Assembly (NCBI GenBank): GCA_965205655.1
Contig: CBDBIJ010000091.1
Span: 18,916-82,915 of the forward strand
DNA length: 64,000 nucleotides
Source of the DNA: Candidatus Latescibacterota bacterium
GTDB lineage: Bacteria > Latescibacterota > UBA2968 > UBA8231
Reading direction: 5' to 3'
Shown here: one piece after another, positions 1 through 26,798 of the stretch
Numbering within the stretch: position 1 is the stretch's first letter
How the letters are laid out: each line of letters begins with the position of its first letter
Translations under genes and position numbers: made by a program
The notes under the pieces: generated by a model
The model's database searches: none
What the model was told of the DNA's origin: nothing
Seen by the model: the letters and a program-made list of their open reading frames with translations, nothing else

Positions 1-636
1 GACGTCATTATGTATCTGGGGGAAGAGTATGAAGCCCTCCACGAGCTGGCCGGAAAAAACGAACTCCTCGGCAGGGTAGGATGTACGCGTGACGATGTCT
101 CGGCGTTCGGTGAAGCGCTGATAGGCCAGGCCGGTGTAGCCGACTGCGAAGCGACGGAAATACTCCACAATATCGAAATCTCCCCACGGATAATAGGTGC
201 GGCCGTTGTCAGACTCGATGGTCGCCTGCAGTGGGTCGAGTTTCACCTTCGGATATTCGTAGTTCTTGACGCTGACCTTGAACACGGAGAACCGCAGCGG
301 CGGACCACCGGTCTGCGGGTCCTCCCAGTCGCCGAAGGTCATGGGGATCGTGGGCAGCTCGCCCCCCGGCCCGCCGCCGTCTTTGGAGAAGGATATGAAC
401 TGACGATTGAGCTCATCGTCGGTCATAGGCCGGACCGAGACCTCGAGGCGGCCTCGGATGTAGGCCGCGGTGCCGTCATCGTACACCTGGATCGCAGCTG
501 CGGCACCCGGCTCAGGCTGCTGCTTGGCGTTGAAAGGCTTGAAGTGGCCGGGCACCAGGTAGTAGCCGCAACCCCATATCAGGGCCAGGGTAACCGGAGC
601 CACAAGAAACCGCTCAATATGGATCCGCATAGTCAT
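1..636 (-). CDS. Uncharacterized lipoprotein, 3' end runs off the window
   Basis: Not in the ORF track because it has no stop in the window. Manual translation is open from ATG 636 to base 1: MTMRIHIERFLVAPVTLALIWGCGYYLVPG...KNYEYPKVKLDP...GFILFPQIHNDV. AGGAG RBS upstream; lipobox-like IWG-C. Confidence 0.85.
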   Translation of the reverse strand, partial: MTMRIHIERFLVAPVTLALIWGCGYYLVPGHFKPFNAKQQPEPGAAAAIQVYDDGTAAYIRGRLEVSVRPMTDDELNRQFISFSKDGGGPGGELPTIPMTFGDWEDPQTGGPPLRFSVFKVSVKNYEYPKVKLDPLQATIESDNGRTYYPWGDFDIVEYFRRFAVGYTGLAYQRFTERRDIVTRTSYPAEEFVFSGQLVEGFILFPQIHNDV

Positions 637-664
637 GATCGTTTCTCCTGCCAGTGCCGCGCCG

Positions 665-2062
665 TTAGCGATCGACGCCGTCCGGCGCGATGGGGTCTGC
701 CTCTCTTCTCTTGCGCGCCACGAAGGTGTGAAAACGGTCCTCCTCCACCGACACCAGCTGTTGATGCCTGGCTCGCAACTCCTCCAGGTAGGTCTCGAAC
801 AGAGGGGCGGCTCGCTCTTCCCGGAGGTCGCGGAGCACCCTGGATTGGACCAGCGCTGCTCCCCTGGAGTCGAACAGCTCCCCGGCGTAGCGCTCCCTGT
901 TGCGCTCGAAGTAATCCTGTATCTCCGCTCCGGTGACAGGGATCTGACTCAGCCCGTCGCGGGACCACAGGGCATCGATCGCCTTCTGTTCCCTCACCGC
1001 CTGCCGCTGCTCGGCCAGGCGGCTGTGCAGACCCTTTTCCCTGGCCTCTTTGTCGAGGAGCTGATCCAGCACATACGTGCGTCGGATGCGTAGAGCGAGG
1101 GACGTGGCCTGGTCGGAAACGGTCAGTTCCTCAACAGGGTGGCGGAGATAGTCGCCAACCGTCCACTCACCGAGGGCGCTGCGCACCAGCGGGAGCGCGG
1201 GATCCACTTCCGCGGGGTCGGAGGCCACCAGCAATCGGTGGACCGCGGAGCTGTCGAGATCCACGTCGTATTTGCTCATGAGCGATTCCAGATACGCCAG
1301 GCTTGCATCAAAGTGTGTCTGCCGCTCGATCGCCAGCTCAGCGAGGCCGCGGCGCTCCTGCAGCGAAACGGTGCGCTCTTCCAGAGCCACGATCAGGACG
1401 TAGCGCCCCTCCGTCTCGACGAGTTCAGCCGCACCGGTCCCCTGCTGGAAAAGGGGAAGAAGGCGCGGCTCTCTCACCGTCAGTGGATTGAGCCAGCGCA
1501 TATCGCCGCCGCCCGCATCCGCTCGCGGGGACCGTGAGGAAGGAAGGGCGTGGAGCTTTGCAAAGCTCATCCCGTCTCTGGCCCGCTCGAGAGCGTCCAG
1601 GGCCTCGGCGCGGTCCGCAAAGACCAAGCGACCGATACGCAGCTCGCGACCGGCACCCGACTTCGAAAAGAATTCCCTGAGCTCCTCTTCACCCCACTGG
1701 AGCGCGGCGCCCATCTCCAATTCGATGAGACTGTCGATGAGGCGGTTGGTCTCCCACGCCTCGGCCTCGCGCACCACCTCCGGGCCGTCGTACAGGCCCC
1801 GCTCCCGCGCTTCCAGGAGCAACAGCTGCCTGTCGACGAGCAGCTGAAACCGTGCTCGCCATTCCTCCAGAGTCGAAGCCGGGGAGCCGCCGCCCTCCAG
1901 CTTCTGCAGGGCGGCGGCAAAATCGGCATCGGTGATTTCCACCGTGTCCACGTGGGCGAGGATGATTGGCTCCCGCGGGCGATCCGTCGTGCTCGCGCCA
2001 CACCCCGCCCACTGCAGCGCGGCGACGCCTACGAGCGTCCCGAGGATCCCACCACCGGCCAT
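665..2062 (-). CDS. SurA/PrsA-like parvulin (PpiC) foldase, lipoprotein
   Basis: Lipobox WAG-C; SurA-N-like 'LAHVDTVEIT...LVDRQLLLLEARERGL'; degenerate rotamase segment 'GMSFAKL...GGDMRWL'. Confidence 0.8.
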   Translation of the reverse strand: MAGGGILGTLVGVAALQWAGCGASTTDRPREPIILAHVDTVEITDADFAAALQKLEGGGSPASTLEEWRARFQLLVDRQLLLLEARERGLYDGPEVVREAEAWETNRLIDSLIELEMGAALQWGEEELREFFSKSGAGRELRIGRLVFADRAEALDALERARDGMSFAKLHALPSSRSPRADAGGGDMRWLNPLTVREPRLLPLFQQGTGAAELVETEGRYVLIVALEERTVSLQERRGLAELAIERQTHFDASLAYLESLMSKYDVDLDSSAVHRLLVASDPAEVDPALPLVRSALGEWTVGDYLRHPVEELTVSDQATSLALRIRRTYVLDQLLDKEAREKGLHSRLAEQRQAVREQKAIDALWSRDGLSQIPVTGAEIQDYFERNRERYAGELFDSRGAALVQSRVLRDLREERAAPLFETYLEELRARHQQLVSVEEDRFHTFVARKRREADPIAPDGVDR

Positions 2063-2085
2063 TCGCCTATGAAGGCGCGAATTAC

Positions 2086-4706
2086 TCAGTACAGATAACC
2101 TCGGCGCTGGGTCGGTCTGCCGCCCTGTCTCTCCTGCTCGAGCCCGGCAAAGACCTCCACAAAGGCGATGGTATTGCTCACGTCAAAATCCGTCAGATTG
2201 TCGAAATTGATGTCGTTTACCTGGAATCCGACGTTGGCGATGATATCGTATCCCAGGTACTCCACCCTGTTGGAATGCTGAGCAGTGAAGACCTTGCCGA
2301 CGAAGTCGTCTACGTACTCCGGCGACACGGGGTCGGGGATGGGTTCGGAGTTCCAGAACAGCACGCCTTCGACGCCCACCTCGATGCTGCTGTGGCTGAG
2401 CAGGGGGAACATGCCGCTCAACGACAGGATCTGGCTCAGCTCATTTATATCAAGCTGCGACGCGTGGGACGGGGTCCGCTTGCGCCACATGCTCTTCCAT
2501 CTCGGAGTCACGATGATGCCATCCCCAACTTCGAACGGGCGATCCGCCTTGTTGATCAGACCGAGAAAGAAGCTGTTGTCGAGCCTGTCAGCTTCGTCAC
2601 CTCGCTGACGGAAGTGATCGAGGCGCAGCTTGTTCCTCACTGTCAGGTTGCCCGCGACGTAGGTGTGGCCGACAAAGCCCTCGTTGACGACGGTGTCCCT
2701 GCTGATCGAGGGATCGCTGAAGGGCCTGAGACCTCCGGACGAGCCGGGCCGCTGAGCCCACAGGACGACATCGTCGTCGATGTCATCCGAGACAGACTTG
2801 AGCATGTGAAACAGCTCGATCAGACCAAGGCGCGGGTGATCCCTGGAGAGGGAGACGAGGGAATACCACATCTTGCTGCGAGCCTCACCGGCGGGGATCC
2901 ACTCGCGAGAGCGGCCAACCGTCACATTGACACCGGGGTAGATTTCGCTCCCTCCGTACACGTTGTAGCCGCGGTGGCCTTTCTTGTACGGGTAATCGGC
3001 GTCCAAGTCGTTTTCGAACCGATCCACGACCGAGTTGTTGTTCATGTCCACGCCGAAGAGAAAGTCGGGCGGGTCTACATAATGTCGTAGGAACGGCTCG
3101 TCGTAATCCGGAGTGAGGTTCTGGTTCTCATTGAAGTCCGAGATCAAGTCGTTGTTTTCGTCGAATCCGGGGAAGATGCTGATGTCGGCGGTGCCGCCGC
3201 CGGCGCGGGCCCAGTCCACTTCGCGATCCTGGTCGTCGTTGTCGTCGACGTACTCATACCAGTTCCGTCGCGAGTCCGAGTAGTCCACGGAGTTGTTCAA
3301 AGCGTTCGTGATATACCCGCGGGTAGTATAGTCGTGCTCCATCCCGAAGACTTCCCCGTACCCGAAGAGACGACCGCTGCGCTTGGTGACGTTGAGGAAG
3401 AAGGCGTCAGCGGTACGCTCGCTCTTATGCAGATCGCTCAACTTCGCAAAATTGATGTTCGGATACCGATAGTACTGGGTGTTTCTGGCGAACTCGCCGC
3501 GAAGTTGAAACCCGAGCACGTCCTCCACTTCGAGGGTTACGCTGCCGATCTGATTGGCCGATGGTACGCCGTAGTGGAAGCTGACCAGTCGCTGATTCGT
3601 GTTGTCCCGCACGTTGCCGCTGGCACGGGTCACCGGCAGGAAGATGGGGCTGATCACCTGCGTTCACCTGAAGGTTGGAGGTGACATCAACCCGATAGTC
3701 GTTGGACAGCACGAGGTCGAAGCGGACCTTTTCGACACCCAGAGGATCGGGGACCGGGAACCTCAGCTCGATCGGGGCTTCCGAAACCGCTTCCAGGAAT
3801 CCCTCTCTGAGGCGGCCGCCCGAGACGAATGGCTCCACGGCCGAGAGTTCCCCATCGACAATCATCTCTGAGAAGAAATAGAGCGCCCCGGAACCGTCCC
3901 CGGGCGAATCGTCCGTAATTCGGATAATGACTTCGTTGACGTTGCCCGAGTTCATCTTGGCGGGCAACAAGCCGGCCAGCGATGTCTCGGAGAAGTCGCT
4001 GCGGCTGGAGCCGAAGTGGGTGTTCACGAAAGCGACGCCGAGCTCGACGAAGTCCCCGAGCTGGGCCGTGCTCCGCAACCCGATCAGGTTTGTGTAATCC
4101 TGGCGCGGGTCGAGCCTCGTCTCACTCGAAGCCAGGAATAGGCTCGCTGACGCGCGAGAGCAGCACCGTGCCATTGTACTTGTCGGAGGCGACATCCCAC
4201 TGGATGCCGTTGAACCGGGCGCGACTGAAGGTCAATGGCGTGAGTGTAGTCCGGATCTCATCTCCGATAGTAAGAGCCGTGTGGTACTGGCCTTTCGAAT
4301 CGGAGGCCACTATCACCTTGCTGAACCAGTTGTTGTACCGCGCCTCCTTCAGCACCGTGCTGCCGAAGGACCGCGGCTGCTGCTGGCGCCAATCGTAGAT
4401 CTGCCAACCCCGGGTAAGCCAGTTCCCGAAGATGTCGTACTTCCCGCGGCCCTCCAGCTCCGTGCTCACATATCGCTCGAAGGTATCCCGGCCGTAGTTG
4501 GTGTAGTTGTAGCCACCCCACTGGTAGTAATTGTAGAGATCGTGGGGCACATACCATTTGCGCAACGTGGGAATGAGCGGGTCATACCCCTCGATCCGCA
4601 CCTGCGAGGTGGCTCCCCTCTCCCTGCCGGGCGTAGCCGCCAAAAGGCCGGAGGCCCAGCAGCTGATGCAGATCAAAACCATCCAGCAGATCGTTCGGTG
4701 GCGCAT
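2086..4706 (-). CDS. Large secreted, probably outer-membrane beta-barrel protein of about 870 aa, split by two frameshifts (about 4138 and 3648)
   Basis: ORFs 4122-4706, 3425-4195 and 2086-3657 overlap in successive frames and join as SRVSEP/FLASSETRLD and AGDQP/IFLPVTRASGN. N-terminal signal peptide; alternating hydrophobic beta-strands in the C-terminal third; Asp/Asn-rich loop. Confidence 0.7.
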
Positions 4707-4720
4707 GATTTCTCTCTTTC

Positions 4721-6529
4721 TCAGTAGGCCACGGCCACGAGGCGGACAAGAGTCTCGTCGCCTTCATCGGTCTCGACCTCGACCCGAAGCAGGTACAACC
4801 CCGGAGGGACGAGATCTTGCGCATCGTCTCTTCCGTCCCAGGTCAGCGTCATTGGTCCAGATAGACCCAAGTCATTGTGTATCTCGCTGACCTGCAGTCC
4901 CGCCAAATCGTGTACGACAGCCCTCGTCCTGACGTGATTCGTGGCCTTCAGCAGAATGTACTCCAGGCTCACCGCATCGTTGGCGCCATCGCCATTCGGA
5001 GTCAGGACCGGAGAGGATAGCCGGACGCGGGCGATGAGGGGGTCCTCGACGCCCGCCTTCACTACGAGGGCATCGCCGTCAAGAGCCTCATTGGCGTCAC
5101 CGGCGACGACGTACTGTGGGAACCCATCGTACTGGCTGTCGACTACCTGGCCTCGAAACTCGGTGCCAGCCACGGTAAGCAGCGCTTCGAAGTCCACTTC
5201 TACCATCTGGCCCGAGGCTTCCACCCGGTCGCCCTCAAACGCGACTGCAAGCTGATTCGATGCGGCAATCCAGGTCGGATCGAATTGGACGGAAGCTCCG
5301 TCGACGCGCACAGCGGTTGCTCGAGCCTCAAAAGGGGTTGTGATGAAAACGGTGTCAAAGCCCGGTTGGCCAGATGAAAGCACGGATCGAAGGTGGTAGG
5401 TGAAGGCGGTCGTGTCACCGAGCACGGCCTCGGCGGGCGAGATTTCACCGACAACGGAATCTGCGATAGCCGGGACCGAGTACAGAATGGTCAATGAATC
5501 GACGACGGCCCTGTCGCGAACCCCGTTCGAGCTGAAGTCGAGATCGAACTGCACCCACTGCCTCGCGTCCGGCGAGTCGAACGGCCCCTCGAGGTAGGGG
5601 TACGAAGGGCTCCAGGGGCTCCAGTCGCGGTTGTTTACCACACTGAAACTCCGGAACGAGCGAAGCTGGCCGGACGGGACCTCATCCCTGGTGATTTCCC
5701 TCACCTGGCCGGCAATACCGGTTGGCATGAAAAAGAGGGAGTCGTCGGCTGCGGACCCGGATTTGGTGCGCAACGTGACACGCGCCGCGGGATCGATACG
5801 GGAGTGGACCTGCATCGGTCCGAAATTCGCCGGCTCCTGCAGGTCGAGGACTTCGCTCACATAGCTCGCGGTGCGCGTTACGCCGATGCCGTACACCTCC
5901 ATATCCCCCATGAGAAAGAAGCCCTGATCAGTGGTGCTGCGTAACCTGAGGAAACGGATTCGCTCGACGGGGAACTGAAGATCCAGCTCTATGTCCGAGT
6001 GGTTGGGGTCAGCAGCAAACAGGGTATACACAGGGTCCGAACCTCTGAAATTGCTGCCGTTGCTGACGTACAACTCGTAACCCCGGAGGGACAGAGAGCC
6101 GAGGTCTATGAAGCGTTCGAAGGATTGCCAATTCGGGTCATTGGGGTCGCTGCCGCGCAGGAGACGTATGCGATGCAGAAAGTAGGTTCCCTTCAGGTCG
6201 ATTTCGAGCTCCGCCCCCTTGGTGTGGACCCACACCCGCCATCCGGTTCCGTAGTCACCGTCGGTGAGGTCGGCCATGATAGATCCCTCGTCCACCGCCG
6301 CGGTCACCGAGGTCACGGCCTTTCCGCCGGTTCCCGGCAACAGGTTCTTCGTGCTGTCCAACTCCACGGGAGACAGGCGGTTGCCGGCTGTTGATAGGCC
6401 CTTCAAAACGAGATCGTGATCTGTCCAGGTCCGACCGGACCCGCCGAATTTGAGGGTCGAGACTCTAGCCGCCACTCCGCCAGAGGATATCGCCAAGGCA
6501 GCCAGAATCAGGATCAAGATTCGCGTCAT
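4721..6529 (-). CDS. Secreted discoidin/F5/8-like domain protein with FlgD-Ig / T9SS type-B-like C-terminal domain
   Basis: Signal peptide; 'LTDGDYGTGW...LEIDL' discoidin-like region; 'DWSPWS'; 'LTPNGDGAND...WDGRD...PPGLYLLRV...RLVAVAY*'. Confidence 0.85.
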   Translation of the reverse strand: MTRILILILAALAISSGGVAARVSTLKFGGSGRTWTDHDLVLKGLSTAGNRLSPVELDSTKNLLPGTGGKAVTSVTAAVDEGSIMADLTDGDYGTGWRVWVHTKGAELEIDLKGTYFLHRIRLLRGSDPNDPNWQSFERFIDLGSLSLRGYELYVSNGSNFRGSDPVYTLFAADPNHSDIELDLQFPVERIRFLRLRSTTDQGFFLMGDMEVYGIGVTRTASYVSEVLDLQEPANFGPMQVHSRIDPAARVTLRTKSGSAADDSLFFMPTGIAGQVREITRDEVPSGQLRSFRSFSVVNNRDWSPWSPSYPYLEGPFDSPDARQWVQFDLDFSSNGVRDRAVVDSLTILYSVPAIADSVVGEISPAEAVLGDTTAFTYHLRSVLSSGQPGFDTVFITTPFEARATAVRVDGASVQFDPTWIAASNQLAVAFEGDRVEASGQMVEVDFEALLTVAGTEFRGQVVDSQYDGFPQYVVAGDANEALDGDALVVKAGVEDPLIARVRLSSPVLTPNGDGANDAVSLEYILLKATNHVRTRAVVHDLAGLQVSEIHNDLGLSGPMTLTWDGRDDAQDLVPPGLYLLRVEVETDEGDETLVRLVAVAY

Positions 6530-8607
6530 CAGTAGGCCAGGCGCACGAGCCGAGTCTGTGTTTCGGAGCCGGTATCTGTCGAAACCGAGAGCCGAAGCAG
6601 GTAGAGCCCGGGAGGCACGAGCCGCTCATGGTCATCGCGGCCGTCCCAGGAGTCGAGCGAGGTTGACGCGGGACCGTTGGGCTGATCGGCCTGCAATTGG
6701 CGCACCCGCCGGCCGGTTAGATTGTGAAGTGTCAGCTCCACGGGTACGGCGGCCAACGCCTTCATGAGGACGTAGGTGATCGTCAGCTCGTCGTTGATTC
6801 CATCTCCGTTCGGGGTGAATACGGCAGGCTCGACCTGAAGATCCTTCAGCAAGGTCCGCAGCAATTCTCCGTGGATGGAGAGTCTATCCGCGTCGGAGTC
6901 CGCTGTGGCGTCGCCGGGCAGCACCTCCTGGCCGAACTCTCCCCTTCCAAAGTCGAAAATCCGACCGGAGAACCTGGTTCCGAAAACGGTGACGAGACCG
7001 CGGAAGCGGACCTTCAGGACCTGGTCCGAACTCTGGATGCGGCGCTCCATGAGCCGCACGGTCAAGCTGTTGGGATCGTCGAGGCCGATTTCCTCGAATT
7101 GATCCGGCGGTACCGTCTCTCCGTCCAGCTCGACGGATTCGAGAATTGCCGGGAATGGAGTCGTGATGCGAATGGCGTCCAGTCCCGGAACGCCTCCCGG
7201 CTCCACCAGAATCTGATACTCATACGACACCGCGGACTCTCTTTCCGGGTCAGTGAAAGAGGCATCGCTGACGTCTTCTATCCGCGCGATCACCTCGAAC
7301 CGGCCGTCGTCGACGGGCCGTCGCTCGACTCGATACGCCCCGAAACTGGCGCCCGAGAATGGACTCCACCGCAAGTTAGCCGAGGTACCCTGAGCCCCGA
7401 TCTGGACGGCGAGCAATGGCGCTTCGATGGCGAACTCCGGACGGATGAAGTAGTCGAAAGTCTGCTCCTGTCCCAGGACGACGGTGGCGGGGATGATCTC
7501 ACCCACCACGCCCCCCCCGGCCAGCGACGGGGTGGAGAATTCGATCTCGAAGGACTCGACGGCCGCGGTCTGGCGAACGTGACCGGAAGTGAAGAGGAGA
7601 CGAAACTGGACAAATTGCCTGTTGCCAGCAGATCGGAACTGGTCCGACAGGTCGCCGGAGGGAGCCGACCAGCGACTCCAGTCCTCCAGGTTGTCCCGCT
7701 CCACACGGTCATCGGAATTGAGCGTGGCGAATATCGCGGCGGCTTGCGGAAAACCCACAGGTTGGATCGGCTCTTCCGTTATTCCGCCTGCCCGGAGGTC
7801 TTCGACCTTCCGGTAATAGATGTGCGGGTCGAGCACCGAACCAGTACGGGTCTGTAGCACGACGTCGGTCTCGGGATCCCGCAGCACCGACGCAAACATG
7901 TCGCCGAAGTTCGCCGGTTCCTTCAGATCTCTGATCTGCGAGGTGAACTGACCGGTTGGCGCGAAGCCGTCTCCAAAGACCTCCAACTCAGTGATGGTGA
8001 AGATCTTCTCAGCGCGGTTTTCCAGTTTGATGAACCTCACGTACTGCAAAGGGAAGGCCATATCGATGACGGGGGAGTCCTCATCGGCACTTGAGAGCTT
8101 CGGATCCCCGAAGTCGATCGGGAGATCATGGCGCAGCCTTTCCGGATCGCCGTCGTGCAGGAACAGTTCCCACGCACGCATGAAGCTCTCCTCTTTGCCG
8201 CTGACAATGATCCGTTCGATCGGCAGAATCGCTCCCAGGTCGATGCGCACGGAAAACCCGGTAAAGTCCGTCCGCTTTGCCGGGGGCTGCCAGGAGGTGG
8301 CGTGGTTGTCATCGGTCAGCGGAAGGATGAGATTGGCGTGTTTGTCCTGCGCTGCGAAAATATGTCCGCCGCGCTCTTTGATGTCAGATAGAGCGTCCCT
8401 GGCAGGATCCACTCGCGACAGTCTCAGGACGCCGTTCACAGTAGAGACCCCCTCAAGCTCGCCGATATCCTCCCAATCGATACCGCCAACACCGATGCGC
8501 AAGATGTCGGCAGCCGCCACCGGGCCAACGCCAAGGGGGAGGCAGACCGCAGCCGACGAGATCAATACGATCAGGATCGACATGACTGGATCGCGGTTGC
8601 GAGTCAT
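6529..8607 (-). CDS. Secreted discoidin-like / FlgD-CTD paralog with an inserted FN3-like domain
   Basis: Same architecture (NFG, RTG, DWSRWS, GEIIP, FTPNGDGIND, WDGRD, RLVRLAY*). Its stop overlaps the next start (TGATG at 6527-6531). Confidence 0.85.
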   Translation of the reverse strand: MTRNRDPVMSILIVLISSAAVCLPLGVGPVAAADILRIGVGGIDWEDIGELEGVSTVNGVLRLSRVDPARDALSDIKERGGHIFAAQDKHANLILPLTDDNHATSWQPPAKRTDFTGFSVRIDLGAILPIERIIVSGKEESFMRAWELFLHDGDPERLRHDLPIDFGDPKLSSADEDSPVIDMAFPLQYVRFIKLENRAEKIFTITELEVFGDGFAPTGQFTSQIRDLKEPANFGDMFASVLRDPETDVVLQTRTGSVLDPHIYYRKVEDLRAGGITEEPIQPVGFPQAAAIFATLNSDDRVERDNLEDWSRWSAPSGDLSDQFRSAGNRQFVQFRLLFTSGHVRQTAAVESFEIEFSTPSLAGGGVVGEIIPATVVLGQEQTFDYFIRPEFAIEAPLLAVQIGAQGTSANLRWSPFSGASFGAYRVERRPVDDGRFEVIARIEDVSDASFTDPERESAVSYEYQILVEPGGVPGLDAIRITTPFPAILESVELDGETVPPDQFEEIGLDDPNSLTVRLMERRIQSSDQVLKVRFRGLVTVFGTRFSGRIFDFGRGEFGQEVLPGDATADSDADRLSIHGELLRTLLKDLQVEPAVFTPNGDGINDELTITYVLMKALAAVPVELTLHNLTGRRVRQLQADQPNGPASTSLDSWDGRDDHERLVPPGLYLLRLSVSTDTGSETQTRLVRLAY

Positions 8608-8630
8608 CTCTTCATCTTTGCACCAAAGCC

Positions 8631-8667
8631 AAGAAAAAAAGGGGAGGGGAATGGCTCCCCTCCCCTT
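8631..8667 (-). terminator. Rho-independent terminator-like hairpin inside the minus-strand gene run
   Basis: aaggggagggga/tcccctcccctt inverted repeat (8639-8667), adjacent to an A-run on + that gives a U-tract on the minus transcript. Confidence 0.8.
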
Positions 8668-8708
8668 CGGGACTGAATGGAACTGCCGCCAGGTGGCGAC
8701 GGGTTTCT

Positions 8709-9611
8709 CTACAGGCCTTGACCGGACAGGGCCTTGATCTGGCCCCAGGAGGTCGCCTGGACCGCCGTGGCTCCCGCTGGAACAGGAGTCAAGTAGACGT
8801 CCGGGATGCCGCCGTCATTGACGAAGGCCTCGGCCGTGGAAACGGCGAGCTGCCAGTAATTCTGGCCTTCCACTCCGCCTTCCCCGCCGCCCTGGTTGAT
8901 GCCGGGATCGGCGTCAGAGATGAACTGCGCCAAGCCGGTGGTAAAATCGGGCGTCAGCGTAAAGACGGTGCTGGCGTCCGGGCCGTCGGTGGCATGCCAG
9001 GGGTCGAACAGACGGGCGTCCCACTCATAGGTGGTTTCCTCGCCAATTCGAGTGATTGCCCGGCGAAAGAATCCCGACGATGCCCACCAGTGGTCCGGGC
9101 AATTCCCACTGCACTCACCGCGAAAGCTGGTGATCAGGGGAAAGAAAGCCGGATCCTGGCGGTTGCCAAAGCTGACCTGCATGGTGACGCGGTCGAGCTC
9201 CTCAGCGGCCTGGCCGTGGGGTCCACTGCCCTGATTGTCCGGATCGAAGATCAACTCCATGGAGTCTTCGAAGAAAGGACAGATGTTCAGGCCGAAGTCG
9301 ACGATCTCAACATCGTCGTGGACTTCGCAGATGCCAGCCAGCTTGTTGGTGGCACCATCCCAGCCGTAGAGTATCTGGGCGAAGAAGTCGTCCGCATCGG
9401 TCGCCTCTCCCTTGACGACGAACATGTCATCGGAGGTGATCTCGAAGCCTGACCTGTTGGCCCAGCCCCAATCACCACTGCGGCCGTCGATGGTGGGAGT
9501 GCCACCCGGCGGGATTCCTATAGCAGAGTACAGGGGCACCTCTGCCGGCTCCTGGGCCACGGCGATCGTGGCAACCAGGGCTACTAACACAGCTGAAAAA
9601 AGCGTGCGCAT
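8709..9611 (-). CDS. Secreted CBM9/DOMON-like putative sugar-binding protein with C-terminal TAVQATSWGQIK motif
   Basis: Signal peptide (..TIAVA-Q); 'PTIDG..DW', 'EVHDD', 'EDSMELIFDPDN', 'TYEW', 'FISDAD' pattern; AGGAGG RBS. Confidence 0.75.
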   Translation of the reverse strand: MRTLFSAVLVALVATIAVAQEPAEVPLYSAIGIPPGGTPTIDGRSGDWGWANRSGFEITSDDMFVVKGEATDADDFFAQILYGWDGATNKLAGICEVHDDVEIVDFGLNICPFFEDSMELIFDPDNQGSGPHGQAAEELDRVTMQVSFGNRQDPAFFPLITSFRGECSGNCPDHWWASSGFFRRAITRIGEETTYEWDARLFDPWHATDGPDASTVFTLTPDFTTGLAQFISDADPGINQGGGEGGVEGQNYWQLAVSTAEAFVNDGGIPDVYLTPVPAGATAVQATSWGQIKALSGQGL

Positions 9612-9637
9612 ACGCTTCCTCCTTCAGAAGGATGAAA

Positions 9638-9772
9638 CTTTGACGCGAGCCCGCGTCAAAGGTGGATTAAAAACAGCACCTATTTATTAAAAACAGCACC
9701 TTAGGTACACCGAAATGATCGCACCGCTAACACCTAAGATGTCTAAAGTAACTCGTGTAACTTCGAAGTCAA
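9638..9772 (-). promoter_or_regulatory. Putative sigma70 promoter, tandem operator-like repeats and 5'-UTR hairpin
   Basis: Minus strand TTGACT (9772-9767), N16, TACTTT (9750-9745). 16-bp direct repeat attaaaaacagcacct at 9666 and 9686. Perfect 10-bp inverted repeat at 9638-9661. AT-rich compared with flanking genes. Confidence 0.6.
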
Positions 9773-9786
9773 GCGATTTGTGCGCC

Positions 9787-11478: not shown

Positions 11479-11674
11479 GGAAAATGCTCCGAAAAGAGGT
11501 TTGCAGAAGTATAACGCGGCGAAACGGAGCGGACCACAGCCGTGGCTCGCAATGTCTCAATCGGGGGTTTCTCTGTAGATTTTTGAAGGTGCGTAGACGT
11601 CGTGTGCGCCAGCTGCTGCGCACAAGAACGTCGCCGAGGGGCGCTCGAGGAGAGGAAAAGGGAAAGGTGAGAGA

Positions 11675-16319: not shown

Positions 16320-16368
16320 GTTGCGGAGCAGGGGAAGTAGACCTCAGTCCACGGCAAAGGAGCGGCTT

Positions 16369-18822: not shown

Positions 18823-18937
18823 TCAGATCTCGCAACCCTCGATGCTCCGCCAGCGGGGCTGGTTCATCCCCCTTCCTCGTTCATCGTCAAATCAGCTCGA
18901 CCGCAACTCTGACGGGTAATCGGGGTCGCAGTGTGAC

Positions 18938-19152
18938 ATGAGCGCCAAGCCGTCCTGGTCGGGGCCATCAGCATTCATTGTCTGCCCGTGGGCCATACTC
19001 GCGGTCAAAGGGCCCCTCGGTCGCCTGAGGAAACGTTACGAGAGCGGATCGTCGTGTACGACAACCGCCTACAACAGGCGGCAGATTTAAGGCGCCAGGA
19101 GACCGCTGATGAGCCGGGTGCTCTCTTTGACCAGCTGGGGTCAAATAAGTAG
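18938..19152 (+). pseudogene. Chimeric relic at the duplication junction: decayed 5' end of the DUF6785-like gene joined to the decayed 3' end of the foldase gene
   Basis: 18938-19012 matches 21765-21875 with a deletion of about 40 bp between agccgtcct repeats; 19012-19152 matches 16178-16319 with indels. Confidence 0.88.
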
Positions 19153-19202
19153 GTTGCAGAAAGGGGAAGTAGACCGGGCCCACTATGCCGGAGGAGCGGA
19201 CA

Positions 19203-21656
19203 GTGAAAGCTCTGAAGAAATACTGGATTCTCGTTTGTCTTCCCGCCCTCGCCGGGGCGGACGAGTTGCGCTTTGATGCAAAGCGTGACTGGGAGAAGTG
19301 GCGGCTTCCCCTCGGCGCGGTGGAACTGGAGCTGAACGGGACCATACGGCCGGTTTCGGTGCAAAAGAACATCAATGCCGTGCTGAATGCCCCGGCTTTC
19401 GAGGGGGGCATTCGCGAGGCCGGCTCTAACGAGAGCGCCGCCCGCTTCGTAATGGACGGGAGGGAGGATACGGGATGGGCACCGGACCCCGAGGATCCAC
19501 CTCGGGACTGGTATATCGAGGTCGACATGGGCCGCGTCGTGAGCGCCACGGCGATAACCTTCGTGTTCGATGAAGAAGCAGAGCCGTTCGAGCTGTTCAA
19601 CGTGCTGCTGTCTGGCGGCGAGCCCCTGCAGGCGAGCGGCAATATTGCGATCGAGGGCACCCTCGTCTACAAGATCAAGGATATCATCAGGCAGAACAAA
19701 CAGCACCGCGTGACCTACGCTCCCGGCGAGGTGCTCGAGTACACGGCAATCAGGGCAGTGCGCATCGAGGTTCTCGACTTCGAGCCCGGTGGCAGGCTGA
19801 TGGAGGTGGAAGTCAACGCCATCGGGCACAATGTGGCTCTGCACATGAAGCCGAACAACGGCAGCGCCCAGATGATCCTCGATCCCGATGTGTCAAATGA
19901 AGAAATAGCGGTTGCCAACGTGCTGCCGCTGGTGGATGGGGCGGTGTTCACCCGCTTTCTCGACAAGCGCGAAGCGAGGTACTCGTATGACACGTGGTGG
20001 GATTTTACGGTCGATCTGGGCGCGACTTACTGGCTGGACCAGGTGAGGATGTACGGCTGGACAGCGCTGCGGCCGAACCACACCGGTAGATATTCGGTCA
20101 GAGATAGAGAGGGGAACCTCATTCTCGTAGGCGACGGCTCCACGACCCAGGTCACCAGGGCATTCAACATCGGGTCGCAGGAGCTCCGCAACACCATCGA
20201 TGCCCTGGGGCGTCGCGATTTTACCCTGAAATTCTATGAAGTGCTCACCTCCGACGGGTCCCTGGCTCCGGATGGCAGTTTCTTATGGACGAAGCACTTC
20301 TCCGGTCGAAGGACCCTCCGAGACCAGCGATTGGGAGTCGTCGACCATCACTTCGATCTGACGCAGGCGCGCCTGTTCCGGATCCGCTGGCTCGCTTGGG
20401 ACGCGGCTTGCAACGACAGATTCAGATTCGGGGCAGCGGGGTCGCAGGGCCTTACACAGGGGTTCGGAACGTGCTACGGGCATGGCACGGCGGATGAATA
20501 CCAGGTTTTCGGGGAGGGCCTCCCCGCGGATGTGGAGCTCACATCCGGACCGATCGAGCTGGGTGGAGACAAGAATCTCATGAGCGTGAGCTGGGAGGCG
20601 GAAACGCCGCCGGGCACGCGGGTGGAGATCAGGAGCCGCACCGGGAATCATATGCGCGTGGACACGACCGCGTGGTTCGACAACAAGGGAGAACCGGTCA
20701 GTCAGAGGAGATGGAACAGTCTGAGGAAGCAAAATCGGGCGGGTGACGTGACGGAGATACGCAACGCCGGCGATGACTGGAGCCCGTGGAGCAACATCTA
20801 CACCGCTTCCGGCCAGGCCTTCCAGTCACCCTCGCCGCGTGAGGCCATGGAGTTGAGCGCCCGTCTGGTGAGCGAATCGCCCCTGACCGCGGCCAGTCTG
20901 GACTGGATCGCGGTGGAGTTCTCGGCACCCATCGCCAGGAGCGTCTTTGGGGAGATCGTCCCGACTCAGGTGCAACCGGGCGAGCTGACCGAATTTTCGT
21001 ACTACGTCCGCCCCATGGGATCAACGCAACAGCTCGACCAGGTAACGGTTGCCGCGCCAGTGCCGGTTCGATTCATGGGGGCGTCCATCGGCGGTGAAGC
21101 TGTTGAGGTAGGGGAACCTGACAGTCTCGACGACGGCTTCCGGATAACGTTTCCGCGGACGGTGCTAGAGAATCAACTCGTGGAGGTGCGATTCGAATCG
21201 TCCGTGTTCGTGCAGGGTACGCGCTTCGAGGCGTTTCTGGGCGATAGCAAGCGCGAGGCGGTCAGACAGCGGGTGGATCCCGGTGACGCCAATAGGCAGG
21301 TCGAGAGCAGCACGAATGTCGTGAGGCTTCCCGTCAGCGACGACCTCATTTCAGATCTGCGCGTCGAGCCACAAGTCCTCACCCCGAACGGAGACGGGAT
21401 CAACGACGAGCTCGAGCTCACGTTCTTCGTGGCAAATGTGTTGAGCCCGCGCCCGATGCGATTGCGGGTGTTCGATTTGTCCGGACGCCTCGTTCACGAG
21501 GAGGACAGAGATGCGATCGCCGGCGAGCAGACGTTCGTCTGGGACGGCAGCACCGGCGGCACAGCGGTGGCGCCCGGAGTCTACCTGCTGGAGCTCAGCC
21601 TGGCCGGCGATGCTCGCGACGACGTGTCGCACCGACTCCTGCCCGTGGCTTACTGA
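19203..21656 (+). CDS. Secreted discoidin-like / FlgD-CTD protein, tandem copy B
   Basis: GTG 19203 after GGAGGAG; collinear with copy A; ends RLLPVAY*. Confidence 0.87.
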   Translation: MKALKKYWILVCLPALAGADELRFDAKRDWEKWRLPLGAVELELNGTIRPVSVQKNINAVLNAPAFEGGIREAGSNESAARFVMDGREDTGWAPDPEDPPRDWYIEVDMGRVVSATAITFVFDEEAEPFELFNVLLSGGEPLQASGNIAIEGTLVYKIKDIIRQNKQHRVTYAPGEVLEYTAIRAVRIEVLDFEPGGRLMEVEVNAIGHNVALHMKPNNGSAQMILDPDVSNEEIAVANVLPLVDGAVFTRFLDKREARYSYDTWWDFTVDLGATYWLDQVRMYGWTALRPNHTGRYSVRDREGNLILVGDGSTTQVTRAFNIGSQELRNTIDALGRRDFTLKFYEVLTSDGSLAPDGSFLWTKHFSGRRTLRDQRLGVVDHHFDLTQARLFRIRWLAWDAACNDRFRFGAAGSQGLTQGFGTCYGHGTADEYQVFGEGLPADVELTSGPIELGGDKNLMSVSWEAETPPGTRVEIRSRTGNHMRVDTTAWFDNKGEPVSQRRWNSLRKQNRAGDVTEIRNAGDDWSPWSNIYTASGQAFQSPSPREAMELSARLVSESPLTAASLDWIAVEFSAPIARSVFGEIVPTQVQPGELTEFSYYVRPMGSTQQLDQVTVAAPVPVRFMGASIGGEAVEVGEPDSLDDGFRITFPRTVLENQLVEVRFESSVFVQGTRFEAFLGDSKREAVRQRVDPGDANRQVESSTNVVRLPVSDDLISDLRVEPQVLTPNGDGINDELELTFFVANVLSPRPMRLRVFDLSGRLVHEEDRDAIAGEQTFVWDGSTGGTAVAPGVYLLELSLAGDARDDVSHRLLPVAY

Positions 21657-21764
21657 CCGGATCAGCCTGCCCTCGATTTCCAGCCCGGCGGGCTGGTTCA
21701 TCCCCTTCGTCATCCATCGTCGTCTCAACCGCAGCTCTGATGGCAGCTCGGGTCGCGGTGTGAC

Positions 21765-23702
21765 ATGAGCGCCAAGCCGTCCTCCGGGGTGTCCTGGCCG
21801 GCAGTCCTGACAGGAGCCGTCCTCGTCGGGGCCATCAGCATTATCTGCCCTTGGGCCATCCTCGTGGTCAAGGGCTCGCAGTTCGCCGGCAACGCCCTGC
21901 CCGTCATCGCCGTCATCCTGCTCTTTCTGCTCGTCGCTCTCGTCGTTCCAGCTCTCAAGCTCCTGCGCTCCCGGCTCGCTTTCTCAAGGGCCGAAATAAT
22001 CACCATCTACATCATGATGCTCGTGGGAGCGGTGGTGGTCACTGACGGATTCAGCGGCAGCTTTCTCACCGTCATAACAGGGGCCGTTTACTACGCCACC
22101 CCCGAAAACAGGTGGCTGGAACTCTTCGCTCCCAACATCCACCCCTGGTTGGCGCCCACCGATCGCGATGCGGTGCGCTGGTTCTACGAGGGACTTCCGG
22201 CTGGAATGGCAATCCCGTGGTCGGCGTGGGCGCGACCGCTGGCGGCGTGGCTTCCCTTCATGCTCGTCTTCTACTGGGTTTTGTTCTGCGTCGGCGTGTT
22301 GCTGCGGGGGCAGTGGGTGGAAAACGACAGGCTCGTGTTTCCCCTCACCCGCCTGCCACTGGCCATGACCGAGGATGCTGACGATGGCGGCAGGCTCGTG
22401 GAGCGGCTGTTGAAACACCCGCTGCTGTGGCTGGGATTCTCAGTCCCTTTCCTGTTTCACTCGTGGAATGGGCTCACCTTCTACTACGACGGTCTTCAGA
22501 AACTATCCGTGGGCGGTGCTCTGCAGCTGCTGAACGGTGAGGTACTCGTACAGTATCGGCTGAATCTCCCCGTCATCGGATTGGCGTGGCTGATGCCCCT
22601 GGGCATCTCCTTCAGCATCTGGTTTTTCCACTCTCTCGGCGTCTTTCAGGATTGGATACTGAAGCGCCTCGGCATCGTGGTCGGCAGCCTCGACGTGTGG
22701 GATTCGGGCGGCTCGCCGATCAGCATTCTGCACGAACAGGCCGGGGCGCTCACGGTGCTGTGCTTTTTCGTGCTGTGGACGGCGCGCCGGCATCTGAAGG
22801 AATTCTGCTGGGCCGCCCTGCGCGGAGAAAGGAGAGAGCGGGAGCCACTATCCCCCAGACTTGCCCTGATCGGGCTGCCGGTGGGGCTGGTCCTGATGGT
22901 GAGCTGGCTGACGATCACCGGCCTCTCGCTCTACGTGGCCGTCCTGCTCGTGGCCGGGTCTCTCGTCGTCTTTATCGCCCTGTCCCGCATCGTCTGCGAG
23001 GTGGGTCTGCCCAGCATCCAATCGCCGATGGTGCCCCAGACCTTCATTACCCGCGGTTTCGGACCGGGTGTGCTGCAGCTGAAGAACATGACGGGACTGG
23101 GCCTGAGCACGGTGTGGATGGGCGACACGGTCACCAACATGATGAACGCGGTGATGCACAGCATGAAGCTCACCTCTACGAGGGCAGCGGCTGACCGCCG
23201 GTTGCCGCTGGCCATGCTGCTCGCCATCGTCATCGGACTGGCGGGGTCGCTGTGGTGCATCATGACGCTGGCCCATACCCACGGCGGCATCAACCTGCAG
23301 CCCTGGTGGTTCAGCGCGGCGCCGAGGTGGCCCTTCCGATTCATGGCTTCGGTCTACAACTCACCCGAACCGAGCTTTGCCCCGCGAGCGCTGTTTACCG
23401 CCATCGGGGCGGGAATCATGTCGGCGCTCCTGTTCCTGCGGGCACGCTTCCCCTGGTGGCCCCTCAACCCGATAGGCTTTCCGATCGCCAAGACGGTGAC
23501 CATCGTCTACTGGAACTGGCTCGCCATATTCACCGCATGGGTGTTGAAGTTCCTCGTTCTGCGCTACGGCGGCGTCCGCGTATTTCGCACCCTGACGCCA
23601 TTTTTCCTTGGTTTGATCCTCGGCGAATTCTCGACAGCCGGTCTGTGGCTCGTCATAGACGGTGTCAACGGCGTCGAGGGAAATATCATCTTCAGGCAAT
23701 GA
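21765..23702 (+). CDS. Polytopic membrane protein, DUF6785/DUF6784-like (putative transporter)
   Basis: Many TM helices; motifs 'YYATPEN.W', 'IPW.AW', 'QWVE..RL.FPL..LP', 'WWPLNPIG', 'RYGG...PFFLGLILGE'. Confidence 0.8.
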   Translation: MSAKPSSGVSWPAVLTGAVLVGAISIICPWAILVVKGSQFAGNALPVIAVILLFLLVALVVPALKLLRSRLAFSRAEIITIYIMMLVGAVVVTDGFSGSFLTVITGAVYYATPENRWLELFAPNIHPWLAPTDRDAVRWFYEGLPAGMAIPWSAWARPLAAWLPFMLVFYWVLFCVGVLLRGQWVENDRLVFPLTRLPLAMTEDADDGGRLVERLLKHPLLWLGFSVPFLFHSWNGLTFYYDGLQKLSVGGALQLLNGEVLVQYRLNLPVIGLAWLMPLGISFSIWFFHSLGVFQDWILKRLGIVVGSLDVWDSGGSPISILHEQAGALTVLCFFVLWTARRHLKEFCWAALRGERREREPLSPRLALIGLPVGLVLMVSWLTITGLSLYVAVLLVAGSLVVFIALSRIVCEVGLPSIQSPMVPQTFITRGFGPGVLQLKNMTGLGLSTVWMGDTVTNMMNAVMHSMKLTSTRAAADRRLPLAMLLAIVIGLAGSLWCIMTLAHTHGGINLQPWWFSAAPRWPFRFMASVYNSPEPSFAPRALFTAIGAGIMSALLFLRARFPWWPLNPIGFPIAKTVTIVYWNWLAIFTAWVLKFLVLRYGGVRVFRTLTPFFLGLILGEFSTAGLWLVIDGVNGVEGNIIFRQ

Positions 23703-23740
23703 TCTCGCGGGGATAGAGTGTTGGAGATCCACGGAGCAAG

Positions 23741-25684
23741 ATGAGCGACAGATCCACCTCCGGCGTGAGCGGCCGAGCCATTCTGACCGGCGCTGTCCTG
23801 GTAGGCGCCATCAGCATCATCAGCCCCTGGGCCATCCTCATCGTCAAGGGCTCGCAGCTGGCCGGCAACGCCGTGCCCATCATCGCCGTCTTCTTCCTGT
23901 TCGGCCTCGTCGCCGTCTTCGTACCGGCACTCAAACTGCTCGGAGCCCGGCTCGCTTTTTCCAGAGCCGAGCTTATCACCGTCTACACCATGATGCTGGT
24001 GGGCTCGGTGATCGTCACCGTGGGGTTCAGCGGCAGCTTTCTCACCGTCACGACGGGCGCCATCTACTACGCCACGCCGGAAAACCGGTGGCACGAGCTC
24101 TTTGTCTCCAACCTCCACAAATGGCTGGCGCCCACTGATCACGAGGCCGTGCGATGGTTCTACGAAGGCCTCCCCGAGGGCGTGCCGATTCCGTGGTCGG
24201 CATGGGTGCGTCCACTGGCGGCGTGGATACCCTTCATCCTCGCCTTCTACTGGGTGCTCTTCTGCATCGGGGTACTGTTGCGGGGACAGTGGGTGGAGAA
24301 CGAACGGCTCGCCTTTCCGCTCACCCGCCTGCCGCTGGCAATGATCGAAGACGTCGACGATCGCGGCAGGCTCGTAGGACGACTGTTCAAGAGGCCGCTG
24401 TTGTGGGTGGGTTTTCTGATTCCCTTTCTCTTCCACTCGTGGAACTCGCTCAGCGGCTACTTCGACGGCATCCCGAGAATGGCCGTGGGTGGTGCCTATC
24501 CGCTGCTGAACGGGGAGGTGATGATCCAGTATCGACTCAATCTTCCCGTCATCGGACTGGCTTACCTCATGCCGCTCGACGTCTCATTCAGCATCTGGTT
24601 TTTCCACGTCCTCGGGCTCGCTCAGGAGTGGGTATTGAAGCGCCTGGGGATCGGCACAGGTCTCGGTCTCGACATCTGGGACTCGGGCGGCTCCCCGGTG
24701 AGCATGCTGCACGAGCAGGCCGGCGCCCTGGCAGTGCTCTGCATTTTCGTGTTGTGGACGGCGCGCGGGCATCTGAAGGAATTCTGCCGGGCAGCCATCC
24801 GAGGAGACCGGAGAGAGCAAGAGCCGGTCTCTCCTCGCGTGGCAATCGTCGGACTGCCGCTGGGCCTGGTGATCATGGTGGGGTGGCTGACAACGACAGG
24901 CCTCCTCTCGCTTGGAGTGGCCGTCCTTCTAGTGGGAGGGGCGCTCGTCGTCTTCATCGGCCTTTCGCGCATCGTCTGCGAAGCGGGTCTGCCCAGCGTT
25001 CAATCGCCGATGGTGCCCCAGGCGTTCATCACGCGGGGCTTCGGGCCGGACACGCTCCAGTTGCACAACATGACCGGACTGGGCCTGGCCACGGTGTGGA
25101 TCGGGGATACGATCACGAACATGATGAACGCCGTGATGCACAGCCTCAAGCTCACGTCGACACAGAGCAGGGCTGACCGCCGGCTGCCGCTCGCCATGCT
25201 GCTGGCTGTCGCCATCGGTATGACGGGATCGGTGTGGTGCATCATGACGGTGGCCTACGCCCACGGCGGCATCAATCTCCAGGGCTACTGGTTCGAGCTG
25301 TTGCCCAAGTGGCCCTTCAGCTACATGGACTCGGCCTACAACTCGCCGGAGTCGAGCTTCACTCCGCGGGTGCTCTTTACCGCCATCGGAGCGGGTGTCA
25401 TGTGGGTGCTCCTCTTCTTGAAGAGTCGCTACATGTGGTGGCCTCTCAACCCGATCGGGTTTCCGATCGCCAAGACGGTGACTATCGCCTATTGGAACGG
25501 GCTCGCCATTTTCACGGCGTGGATATTGAAGGCTTTCATTCTGCGCTACGGTGGCGTACGCCTGTATCGCAATCTGACACCGTTTTTTCTCGGATTGATT
25601 TTGGGAGAGTTCTCGACCGCCTGCATGTGGGCGTTCATCGACGGGCTGAACGGCGTCGAGGGGAACATCATATTCAGGAACTGA
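23741..25684 (+). CDS. Polytopic membrane protein, DUF6785/DUF6784-like, tandem paralog
   Basis: Collinear over its full length with 21765-23702. Confidence 0.8.
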   Translation: MSDRSTSGVSGRAILTGAVLVGAISIISPWAILIVKGSQLAGNAVPIIAVFFLFGLVAVFVPALKLLGARLAFSRAELITVYTMMLVGSVIVTVGFSGSFLTVTTGAIYYATPENRWHELFVSNLHKWLAPTDHEAVRWFYEGLPEGVPIPWSAWVRPLAAWIPFILAFYWVLFCIGVLLRGQWVENERLAFPLTRLPLAMIEDVDDRGRLVGRLFKRPLLWVGFLIPFLFHSWNSLSGYFDGIPRMAVGGAYPLLNGEVMIQYRLNLPVIGLAYLMPLDVSFSIWFFHVLGLAQEWVLKRLGIGTGLGLDIWDSGGSPVSMLHEQAGALAVLCIFVLWTARGHLKEFCRAAIRGDRREQEPVSPRVAIVGLPLGLVIMVGWLTTTGLLSLGVAVLLVGGALVVFIGLSRIVCEAGLPSVQSPMVPQAFITRGFGPDTLQLHNMTGLGLATVWIGDTITNMMNAVMHSLKLTSTQSRADRRLPLAMLLAVAIGMTGSVWCIMTVAYAHGGINLQGYWFELLPKWPFSYMDSAYNSPESSFTPRVLFTAIGAGVMWVLLFLKSRYMWWPLNPIGFPIAKTVTIAYWNGLAIFTAWILKAFILRYGGVRLYRNLTPFFLGLILGEFSTACMWAFIDGLNGVEGNIIFRN

Positions 25685-26791: not shown

Positions 26792-26798
26792 GAGCGCC

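Follow-up and report, generated by a model that had tools for sequence, protein, structure and literature searches.

A multi-copy Latescibacterota gene cassette combines CHU_C-tailed secreted proteins with a new family of large outer-membrane barrels

In Bacteroidota, genes for type-B cargo of the T9SS (type IX secretion system) are succeeded by porP/sprF-like genes, and the proteins that these encode bind or shuttle that cargo, as described in two papers (PMC9143113, PMC12618676). The locus studied here occupies positions 1–25684 of a stretch of 64,000 nucleotides (nt), referred to below as the window, from a Candidatus Latescibacterota bacterium (GenBank assembly GCA_965205655.1, contig CBDBIJ010000091.1, positions 18,916 to 82,915 of the forward strand). 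It resembles pairs such as SprB/SprF of F. johnsoniae or PG1035/PorP of P. gingivalis in its secreted proteins with a C-terminal domain (CTD) of the CHU_C type and a TPNGDGxND motif, in the outer-membrane barrel gene found directly downstream and in the presence of several paralogous pairs per genome. Like the hosts of those pairs, its host encodes SprA and PorU, together with a PorV-like gene that stays below the cut-off. A second likeness is to the SusC/SusD polysaccharide utilisation loci (PULs), where a large outer-membrane barrel is encoded together with surface binding proteins, in places also with an inner-membrane permease, in many paralogous cassettes per genome. We have found a real, conserved and undescribed cassette of CTD proteins and barrel that is specific to Latescibacterota and present in many copies, of which this locus is one. 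The literature searched held no description of the cassette or of a T9SS in Latescibacterota, and in the 2015 genome paper on Latescibacteria the passages on secretion system, outer membrane, oligopeptide and TonB mention no such system.

The differences from both relatives are considerable. Set against PorP/SprF, the cassette barrel has 871 amino acids (aa), about 22–24 strands, a beta-sandwich insert and acidic loops, and no match to PF11751 (PorP/SprF) was obtained either with the window fragments or with the intact homologs P0002, P0114 and P0120. Unlike the type-B cargo of Bacteroidota, the tails fall below the TIGR04131 cut-off, there are up to five cargo genes per barrel, and the cassette adds parvulin lipoproteins, a further lipoprotein, FG-GAP and tetratricopeptide repeat (TPR) genes and permeases of the OPT fold, in a host that belongs to Latescibacterota and not to Bacteroidota and where GldL and GldM went undetected. 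In contrast to SusC/SusD loci, the cassette has neither a TonB-dependent receptor or Plug signature nor a SusD family member, its surface proteins bear T9SS-type tails instead of lipid anchors, and no glycoside hydrolases were seen. An earlier note on this DNA had held that the locus fits neither system; this stands for the barrel family, which is new, and is too strong mechanistically, given that the gene order follows the succession of type-B cargo and cognate barrel. What we seem to see, judging from these comparisons, is the known T9SS cargo-partner logic in a modified form, built around a new barrel family with extra dedicated parts.

The cassette recurs in other genomes. We have retrieved 80 loci around barrel relatives in other genomes, all of them Latescibacterota metagenome-assembled genomes (MAGs), although some are labelled Gemmatimonadetes, one Planctomycetota and one "uncultured bacterium", and their barrels were grouped into 18 subfamilies at 60% identity. 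Among the 74 loci with at least 1.5 kb of upstream DNA, 69 have a CTD-type gene as the immediate upstream neighbour of the barrel, read from the same strand, and this order spans the 18 subfamilies. Four of the five exceptions have a DUF6785 gene 52 nt after the barrel (L074, L083, L086 and L087), and the remaining one (L085) is without any cassette neighbour. In the 50 loci flanked by at least 9 kb on both sides, we found near the barrel CTD proteins (49 loci), peptidyl-prolyl isomerases (PPIases; 48), the cassette lipoprotein (43), FG-GAP/ASPIC proteins (27), the secreted protein s300 (26), TPR proteins (25) and DUF6785 proteins (22). Each cassette holds one to five cargo genes, and the order of genes within cassettes is shuffled between subfamilies. 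The tabulation of neighbourhoods that the earlier note had proposed thus shows its components together around barrel paralogs in 80 loci of other genomes. Its idea of a lineage-specific machine holds insofar as the cassette belongs to Latescibacterota; instead of one machine, we see one of many paralogous cassettes. The co-occurrence on which the note depended is there for the barrel with its CTD proteins, PPIases and lipoprotein, and the barrel matches neither PorP/SprF nor TonB-dependent families.

Among 168 genomes of the phylum, the barrel is present in 106, including 75 of the 75 in the family of the window genome (at least 5 matches scored per genome), and first-look candidates, which are unverified, reach up to 86 per genome. 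A hidden Markov model search of the window genome, which is 84% complete, identified 15 genes or gene fragments for barrels, spread over 10 contigs. Near-complete genomes from the barrel-less families f2–f4 behaved differently: in five out of five the barrel profile found nothing, and the CTD-protein profile found CTD tails, with a handful of short and weak matches in its middle and no full-length one. Synteny with a genome of another genus (G103) extends over the entire locus, at about 80% nucleotide identity, and the barrel there is intact. There (L089/L090, C11; joined-stretch positions 7776–13120) a 5.3-kb insertion parts the FG-GAP arm from the ppi2 arm, so that the two arms of the locus, by comparison of the two genomes, need not be co-regulated.

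The barrel gene of the window (2086–4706, minus strand) lies in three frames in the present assembly and encodes 871 aa when intact; intact homologs range from 858 to 898 aa, the closest being 87% identical. It represents a new family of outer-membrane proteins, with about 900 representative clusters at 50% identity that all lack annotation (905 of them matched at E ≤ 0.001 in a set of 1.84 billion proteins). No Pfam or NCBIfam family matched the window fragments and no Pfam family matched the three intact homologs mentioned above; Plug and TonB_dep_Rec were absent from the Pfam and NCBIfam scans, as were POTRA, usher, TpsB, SLH and S-layer families from those with Pfam, and a 33-sequence profile yielded 0 matches at E ≤ 10 against the PDB sequences. 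These scans bear out what had been noticed from the letters alone, namely the lack of a PorP-like or TonB-dependent signature. An Atlas search returned unnamed clusters only, plus a weak lead to DUF6029 ("TonB-dependent receptor-like", score 0.89).

The AlphaFold2 model of the barrel (mean pLDDT 69.7, pTM 0.66) has about 22 long strands by DSSP and a short hairpin, with the insert at residues 258–360. The N-terminal 115 aa are conserved and poorly modelled (pLDDT <50 for residues 24–140), and the acidic region 485–575 (window ~2980–3250, minus strand) is likewise modelled with low confidence. Compared with the PDB by Foldseek, the model resembles only generic large barrels, with TM-scores of 0.13–0.25, among them SlpA, MtrB, LptD, FimD, porins and TonB-dependent receptors, the transporters of the last group reaching 0.14–0.21. 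Across representatives of the 18 subfamilies, conservation is strongest at residues 151–180 and in the DxNxD-rich loops at 511–570. The motifs of these acidic loops (FPGLDENND..., DMNNN...DRFEND) resemble EF-hand or dockerin-type calcium sites, and the loops may well be EF-hand-like calcium-binding sites. A complex prediction of the mature barrel (residues 24–871) with the last 150 residues of its cognate upstream CTD protein scored 0.00 in both runs, which were made without controls.

The frame breaks in the barrel gene are probably assembly errors rather than a sign of a pseudogene or of programmed shifts, because contigs from other studies lack the extra bases and contigs from the likely source run break at those places. 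Compared with the gene of the intact 87%-identical homolog, the window carries 1-nt insertions near 4133 and 3659, plus one in-frame 3-nt indel. Near-identical contigs from two other studies have one base fewer at 3646 and one fewer at 4135, and one of these contigs covers the entire stretch with just 4 further differences; in the likely source run, contigs end exactly at both insertion sites, at a depth of 2–4.5. A programmed frameshift was considered and rejected, given that truncated database homologs read through the window break sites or break elsewhere, and that independent contigs do without the extra bases. Also rejected was a fusion of barrel and CTD protein, suggested by a 1491-aa open reading frame (ORF) in locus L036 and by open frames of ~1500 aa: the ORF arose by extension from a tblastn match that had run past a stop codon, and the barrel itself is complete with 871 aa. 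Another barrel paralog of the window genome (G000:C144:6893-9526) is interrupted in frame by TAG at 8330 and by TGA at 9191. The two stops occupy what appear to be conserved tryptophan positions, so that each would be a G-to-A change from TGG; this copy would be either a pseudogene or a sequence error.

Four CTD proteins accompany the barrel. Two are encoded on the minus strand, one of 602 aa directly upstream of it (4721–6529; signal peptide, discoidin-like domain and a CHU_C/FlgD-Ig-like tail) and one of 692 aa (6529–8607; CHU_C-type tail), and two on the plus strand (16276–18822, an 848-aa ORF with its likely start at 16381, and 19185–21656, 823 aa). Their tails are the extreme C-terminus of the ORFs, and their N-terminal signal peptides, like all signal peptides and lipoboxes reported here, were read from the translations by eye, without a predictor. 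CHU_C matched above its cut-off of 27 bits in three of the four (28.9, 30.8 and 31.8 bits for the 692-aa, 848-aa and 823-aa proteins), while in the 602-aa protein all matches stayed below their cut-offs (F5_F8_type_C 23.9, CHU_C 20.3 and FlgD_ig 19.9 bits). The four CTD-tagged paralogs announced by the earlier note are consequently all there, three of them by a Pfam match above cut-off and none by the type-B model TIGR04131. In 32 diverse cassette CTD proteins, CHU_C was found in 31 at E ≤ 0.001, FlgD_ig in 27, F5/8 type C in 17 and a NedA-like galactose-binding domain in 12, and no enzyme domain was found. Proteins with discoidin-type binding domains and without enzyme domains agree with the ligand-binding role that had been suggested for them.

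In the window genome, full-length CHU_C matches, including the TPNGDG start, are almost confined to cassette proteins upstream of barrels (contigs C5, C73, C138, C144 with two, C146 and C91), and the numerous other tails cover no more than its second half. The two plus-strand CTD proteins are 91% identical. Their genes derive from a tandem duplication, visible as direct repeats over 16215–21880 with a period of ~2834 nt, which also placed a copy of the 3′ end of ppi3 in the spacer at 19048–19160; the syntenic genome has one copy of the duplicated CTD gene.

The link to a T9SS comes from the tails, the gene order and the host. The window genome has SprA (565 bits against a cut-off of 200) and PorU (650 against 420), and next to PorU a PorV-like gene (148.6 bits, below the cut-off of 250), which answers the question of co-occurrence with sprA, porU and porV raised beforehand positively for the first two. 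SprA is found in 167 of the 168 phylum genomes. At least 35 other ORFs in the window genome carry PorU-CTD-like tails, so cargo of the T9SS type appears to be abundant in it. The porU–porV-like pair lies at G000:C127:23381-27698 and a second PorU-like gene (549 bits) at C121:43304-45973. PF11751 matched nothing anywhere in the window genome, and the control genomes gave no match to it either.

In E. coli, the lptD–surA neighbourhood offers an example of a parvulin chaperone gene near the gene of a large outer-membrane barrel. The cassette has a similar arrangement, with PpiC-type rotamase domains and long helical extensions as in SurA, PrsA and PpiD encoded beside a large barrel gene. In contrast to those parvulins, the cassette proteins are apparent lipoproteins (an xxGC lipobox in all three), come as three paralogs in this one locus, of which one has no recognisable PPIase domain, and are cassette-specific instead of housekeeping. 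These are ppi1 (665–2062, minus strand), with a degenerate or absent PPIase domain (a weak EpsD PPIase match at E 1.7e-4), ppi2 (9787–11478, minus strand), a SurA/PrsA-like protein with two rotamase domains (Rotamase_2 83.3 and Rotamase 66.4 bits), and ppi3 (14778–16319, plus strand), with a single one (Rotamase_2 35 and Rotamase 33.1 bits). Ppi1 gave no rotamase match in Pfam and is 27% identical to ppi2 over 425 aa; in the orthologous loci L009–L024, its gene comes right after that of the barrel. Three dedicated foldases had been proposed for this locus, and the description suits ppi2 and ppi3, while ppi1 is a paralog only. In the window genome, the PPIase and lipoprotein paralogs are mostly found on barrel-bearing contigs (C91, C144 and C146), with copies on C143 that have no barrel match nearby. 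The cassette lipoprotein itself (259 aa; 1–636, minus strand) has its C-terminal 47 aa past the window start (full ORF G000:C91:18772-19551) and gave no Pfam, NCBIfam or informative PDB match.

The plus arm ends with two proteins of the DUF6785+DUF6784 type (21765–23702, PF20581 404.8 and PF20580 97.5 bits, and 23741–25684, PF20581 422.4 bits; both on the plus strand), which are 76% identical. Their AlphaFold2 model (pLDDT 85, pTM 0.87) superposes on barley Yellow Stripe 1 (7wsr/7wst; TM-scores 0.65/0.69, E 1.7e-8), the sole significant fold match, with the next at E 0.08. Because of this match, we take DUF6785/6784 proteins to be inner-membrane secondary transporters of the OPT fold. They differ from the OPT/Yellow-Stripe transporters (PF03169) in their sequence, with ~14% identity and nothing matched by Pfam's OPT model up to E 10, and in a massive paralog expansion in most families of the phylum; PDB sequences gave nothing informative, and an Atlas lead pointed to a cluster where OPT also occurs in 11% of members. 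The literature searched held nothing on DUF6785 or DUF6784, and the OPT transporter fold of the two together gives a first functional handle on these Pfam domains. Inside cassettes, DUF6785 is found in ~6 of the 18 subfamilies, and in 5 loci it starts 52 nt after the barrel. As to its numbers in the phylum, families f1–f4 have 13–88 first-look candidates per genome.

The interpretation that we favour, with about equal chances of being right or wrong, is that the CTD proteins are cargo exported by SprA and held at the surface by their cognate barrel, with the parvulins as chaperones and the OPT-fold permeases perhaps importing. One to five secreted proteins per cassette, whose beta-rich body comes with a Sec signal and a discoidin/galactose-binding-like domain, would cross the inner membrane via Sec and then the outer membrane via the SprA-type T9SS translocon, which would recognise the CHU_C/FlgD-Ig-like C-terminal domain of ~90 aa. 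The large barrel encoded directly downstream would receive the cargo and hold it at the cell surface, the role that PorP/SprF has for type-B cargo, while the lipoprotein parvulin-type chaperones would escort the barrel and/or its cargo across the periplasm. The neighbouring permeases (DUF6785/6784) may take in a small solute that is set free or caught at the surface. The analysis itself establishes gene content, conservation, copy number, gene order, folds and the presence of SprA and PorU, with a PorV-like gene under its cut-off; dependence on the T9SS, binding of cargo by the barrel, the clients of the chaperones and the tie to import are inferences.

Several observations weigh against this interpretation. 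TIGR04131 (type B, cut-off 35) matched only two of the window proteins, with 14.3 bits for the 692-aa one and 18.3 for the other, and FlgD_ig scores about as high as CHU_C on the window tails; TIGR04183 (type A) also stayed low, with 18.9 and 14.3 bits against 23. No similarity of the barrel to PorP/SprF or PorV was detected by Pfam or Foldseek. As for the motor, GldL and GldM (TIGR03513, TIGR03517, PF12081) had no match in the 84%-complete window genome, TIGR03513 and TIGR03517 having none in the control genomes as well, and for GldK there were generic FGE-sulfatase matches only, which reached no more than 80.7 bits (cut-off 350). The loci compared come from closely related MAGs, so their counts are not independent. 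The permease is the part least tied to the rest: DUF6785 is present in 154 of the 168 phylum genomes. All 56 genomes of the three barrel-less families have it, and family f10, where barrel matches are weak, has it in 0 of 13. With tens of copies per genome, its presence in the flanks of 22 out of 50 barrels is only a modest enrichment. Because DUF6785 is so much more widespread than the barrel, its coupling to the cassette, which seems to reside solely in local operon-like adjacency, is the weakest part of the uptake model. The earlier proposal of a coupling to inner-membrane uptake is therefore retained as regards the transporter fold and the adjacency in about a third of the subfamilies, and loses ground with a distribution that is independent of the barrel.

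It is possible, if rather unlikely, that the barrel is instead a nutrient import channel, similar to SusC or a TonB-dependent transporter, with the CTD proteins as surface substrate-binding partners or lids in the place of SusD or surface glycan-binding proteins, their tails serving for export only and PorU perhaps providing the anchoring, and the OPT-fold permease completing the uptake. The ~22 long strands, a conserved N-terminal region of 115 aa that might be a plug, the TonB-dependent receptors among the weaker Foldseek matches, DUF6029 as the nearest named Atlas cluster (a weak lead), the DUF6785 gene directly after the barrel in the 5 loci, the discoidin/galactose-binding-like domains and the PUL-like multiplicity all go in this direction. 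The absence of Plug and TonB_dep_Rec matches in Pfam, barrel TM-scores of just 0.15–0.25, the independent distribution of DUF6785 and the lack of any glycoside hydrolase or peptidase among the cassette genes speak against it. A slim chance is left to a dedicated secretion pore or usher, which would export its upstream neighbours independently of a T9SS, in the manner of two-partner or chaperone-usher secretion, with the parvulin lipoproteins as periplasmic chaperones. The ushers FimD and PapC do appear among the Foldseek matches, 48 of 50 loci have dedicated chaperone genes next to the barrel and the T9SS motor genes went undetected; yet the fold matches are generic, there is no POTRA, usher or TpsB match, and the tails belong to the CHU_C/T9SS-CTD/FlgD-Ig group in a genome with SprA, PorU and the sub-cut-off PorV-like gene.

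Equally improbable seems a surface coat or adhesin layer without a transport role, where the barrels would be anchors like SlpA of Deinococcus and the CTD proteins the exposed layer. The top Foldseek matches of the barrel are precisely the S-layer anchoring barrels of SlpA (7zgx, 8agd and 8ae1), the paralogous surface proteins without enzyme domains are many, and the conserved acidic loops probably bind calcium; the TM-scores of these matches are only ~0.2, no SLH or S-layer family was matched, and the transporter and chaperone genes of the cassettes would be left unexplained. Finally, the genes could be neighbours by chance or by shared envelope regulation, without a common function, which we take to be very improbable for the locus as a whole. 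DUF6785 and FG-GAP/ASPIC genes are indeed very numerous in these genomes and the insertion in the syntenic genome splits the two arms of the locus; DUF6785 and FG-GAP/TPR may still be neighbours by chance. For the core of CTD protein, barrel, PPIase and lipoprotein, chance is already contradicted by the constancy of the CTD–barrel order across 18 subfamilies and by PPIase and lipoprotein paralogs that, C143 copies excepted, keep mostly to barrel-bearing contigs.

Latescibacterota are widespread, uncultured bacteria that are thought to degrade algal and particulate polymers, and the host of the window is an uncultured bacterium of marine type. With at least 15 copies per genome, the cassette is likely to be central to how these cells handle their surroundings. 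Should CHU_C-type cargo have this barrel as its cognate partner, T9SS sorting outside Bacteroidota would use a different and much larger receptor than PorP/SprF, and the known design space of the T9SS would become wider. A bolder idea, which we regard as unlikely, is a third architecture, next to TonB-dependent receptors and SusCD, for surface capture and uptake, where a calcium-binding barrel of ~22–24 strands, in tens of paralogs per genome, would have its own discoidin-bearing T9SS cargo and dedicated lipoprotein chaperones and would provide a gated entry to OPT-fold permeases.

As to the layout of the locus, ORF, Pfam and NCBIfam scans give 14 ORFs for exported or membrane proteins, arranged as two divergent runs whose minus and plus arms are 197 nt apart, in agreement with the gene content and coordinates first read from the letters. 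The spacing is tight, as had also been noticed: there is a 1-nt overlap at 6529 and an ATGA overlap at 14778–14781, the CTD gene (4721) and the barrel (4706) are 14 nt apart, and further gaps measure 23, 28 and 38 nt. Besides the genes already described, the minus arm encodes s300 (8709–9611), a secreted protein of 300 aa to which no family could be assigned (no Pfam, NCBIfam or PDB match). The plus arm opens with a secreted FG-GAP beta-propeller with an ASPIC/UnbV domain (11675–13330; FG-GAP_3 176 and UnbV_ASPIC 67.8 bits), followed by a TPR protein with an uncertain start codon and a possible lipobox (13252–14781; TPR families ~180 bits). FG-GAP/ASPIC and TPR genes are paired beside barrels in several subfamilies. 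An Rfam scan of window positions 1–27000 gave no family match, and the public sequencing runs listed included no RNA run holding the locus. The second DUF6785 gene is followed directly by genes of the other strand (25727–27446) for a GFO/IDH/MocA oxidoreductase and a cupin, cytoplasmic-type enzymes that might process an imported solute. To the left of the window (G000:C91:1-19600), an MR_MLE enolase-superfamily gene comes directly after the lipoprotein, and the same region holds two FG-GAP/ASPIC genes, an FGE-sulfatase-domain gene, an AMP-binding enzyme, a HEAT-repeat protein, parts of an ABC transporter and a 1265-aa ORF that fuses FG-GAP/ASPIC and TPR domains.

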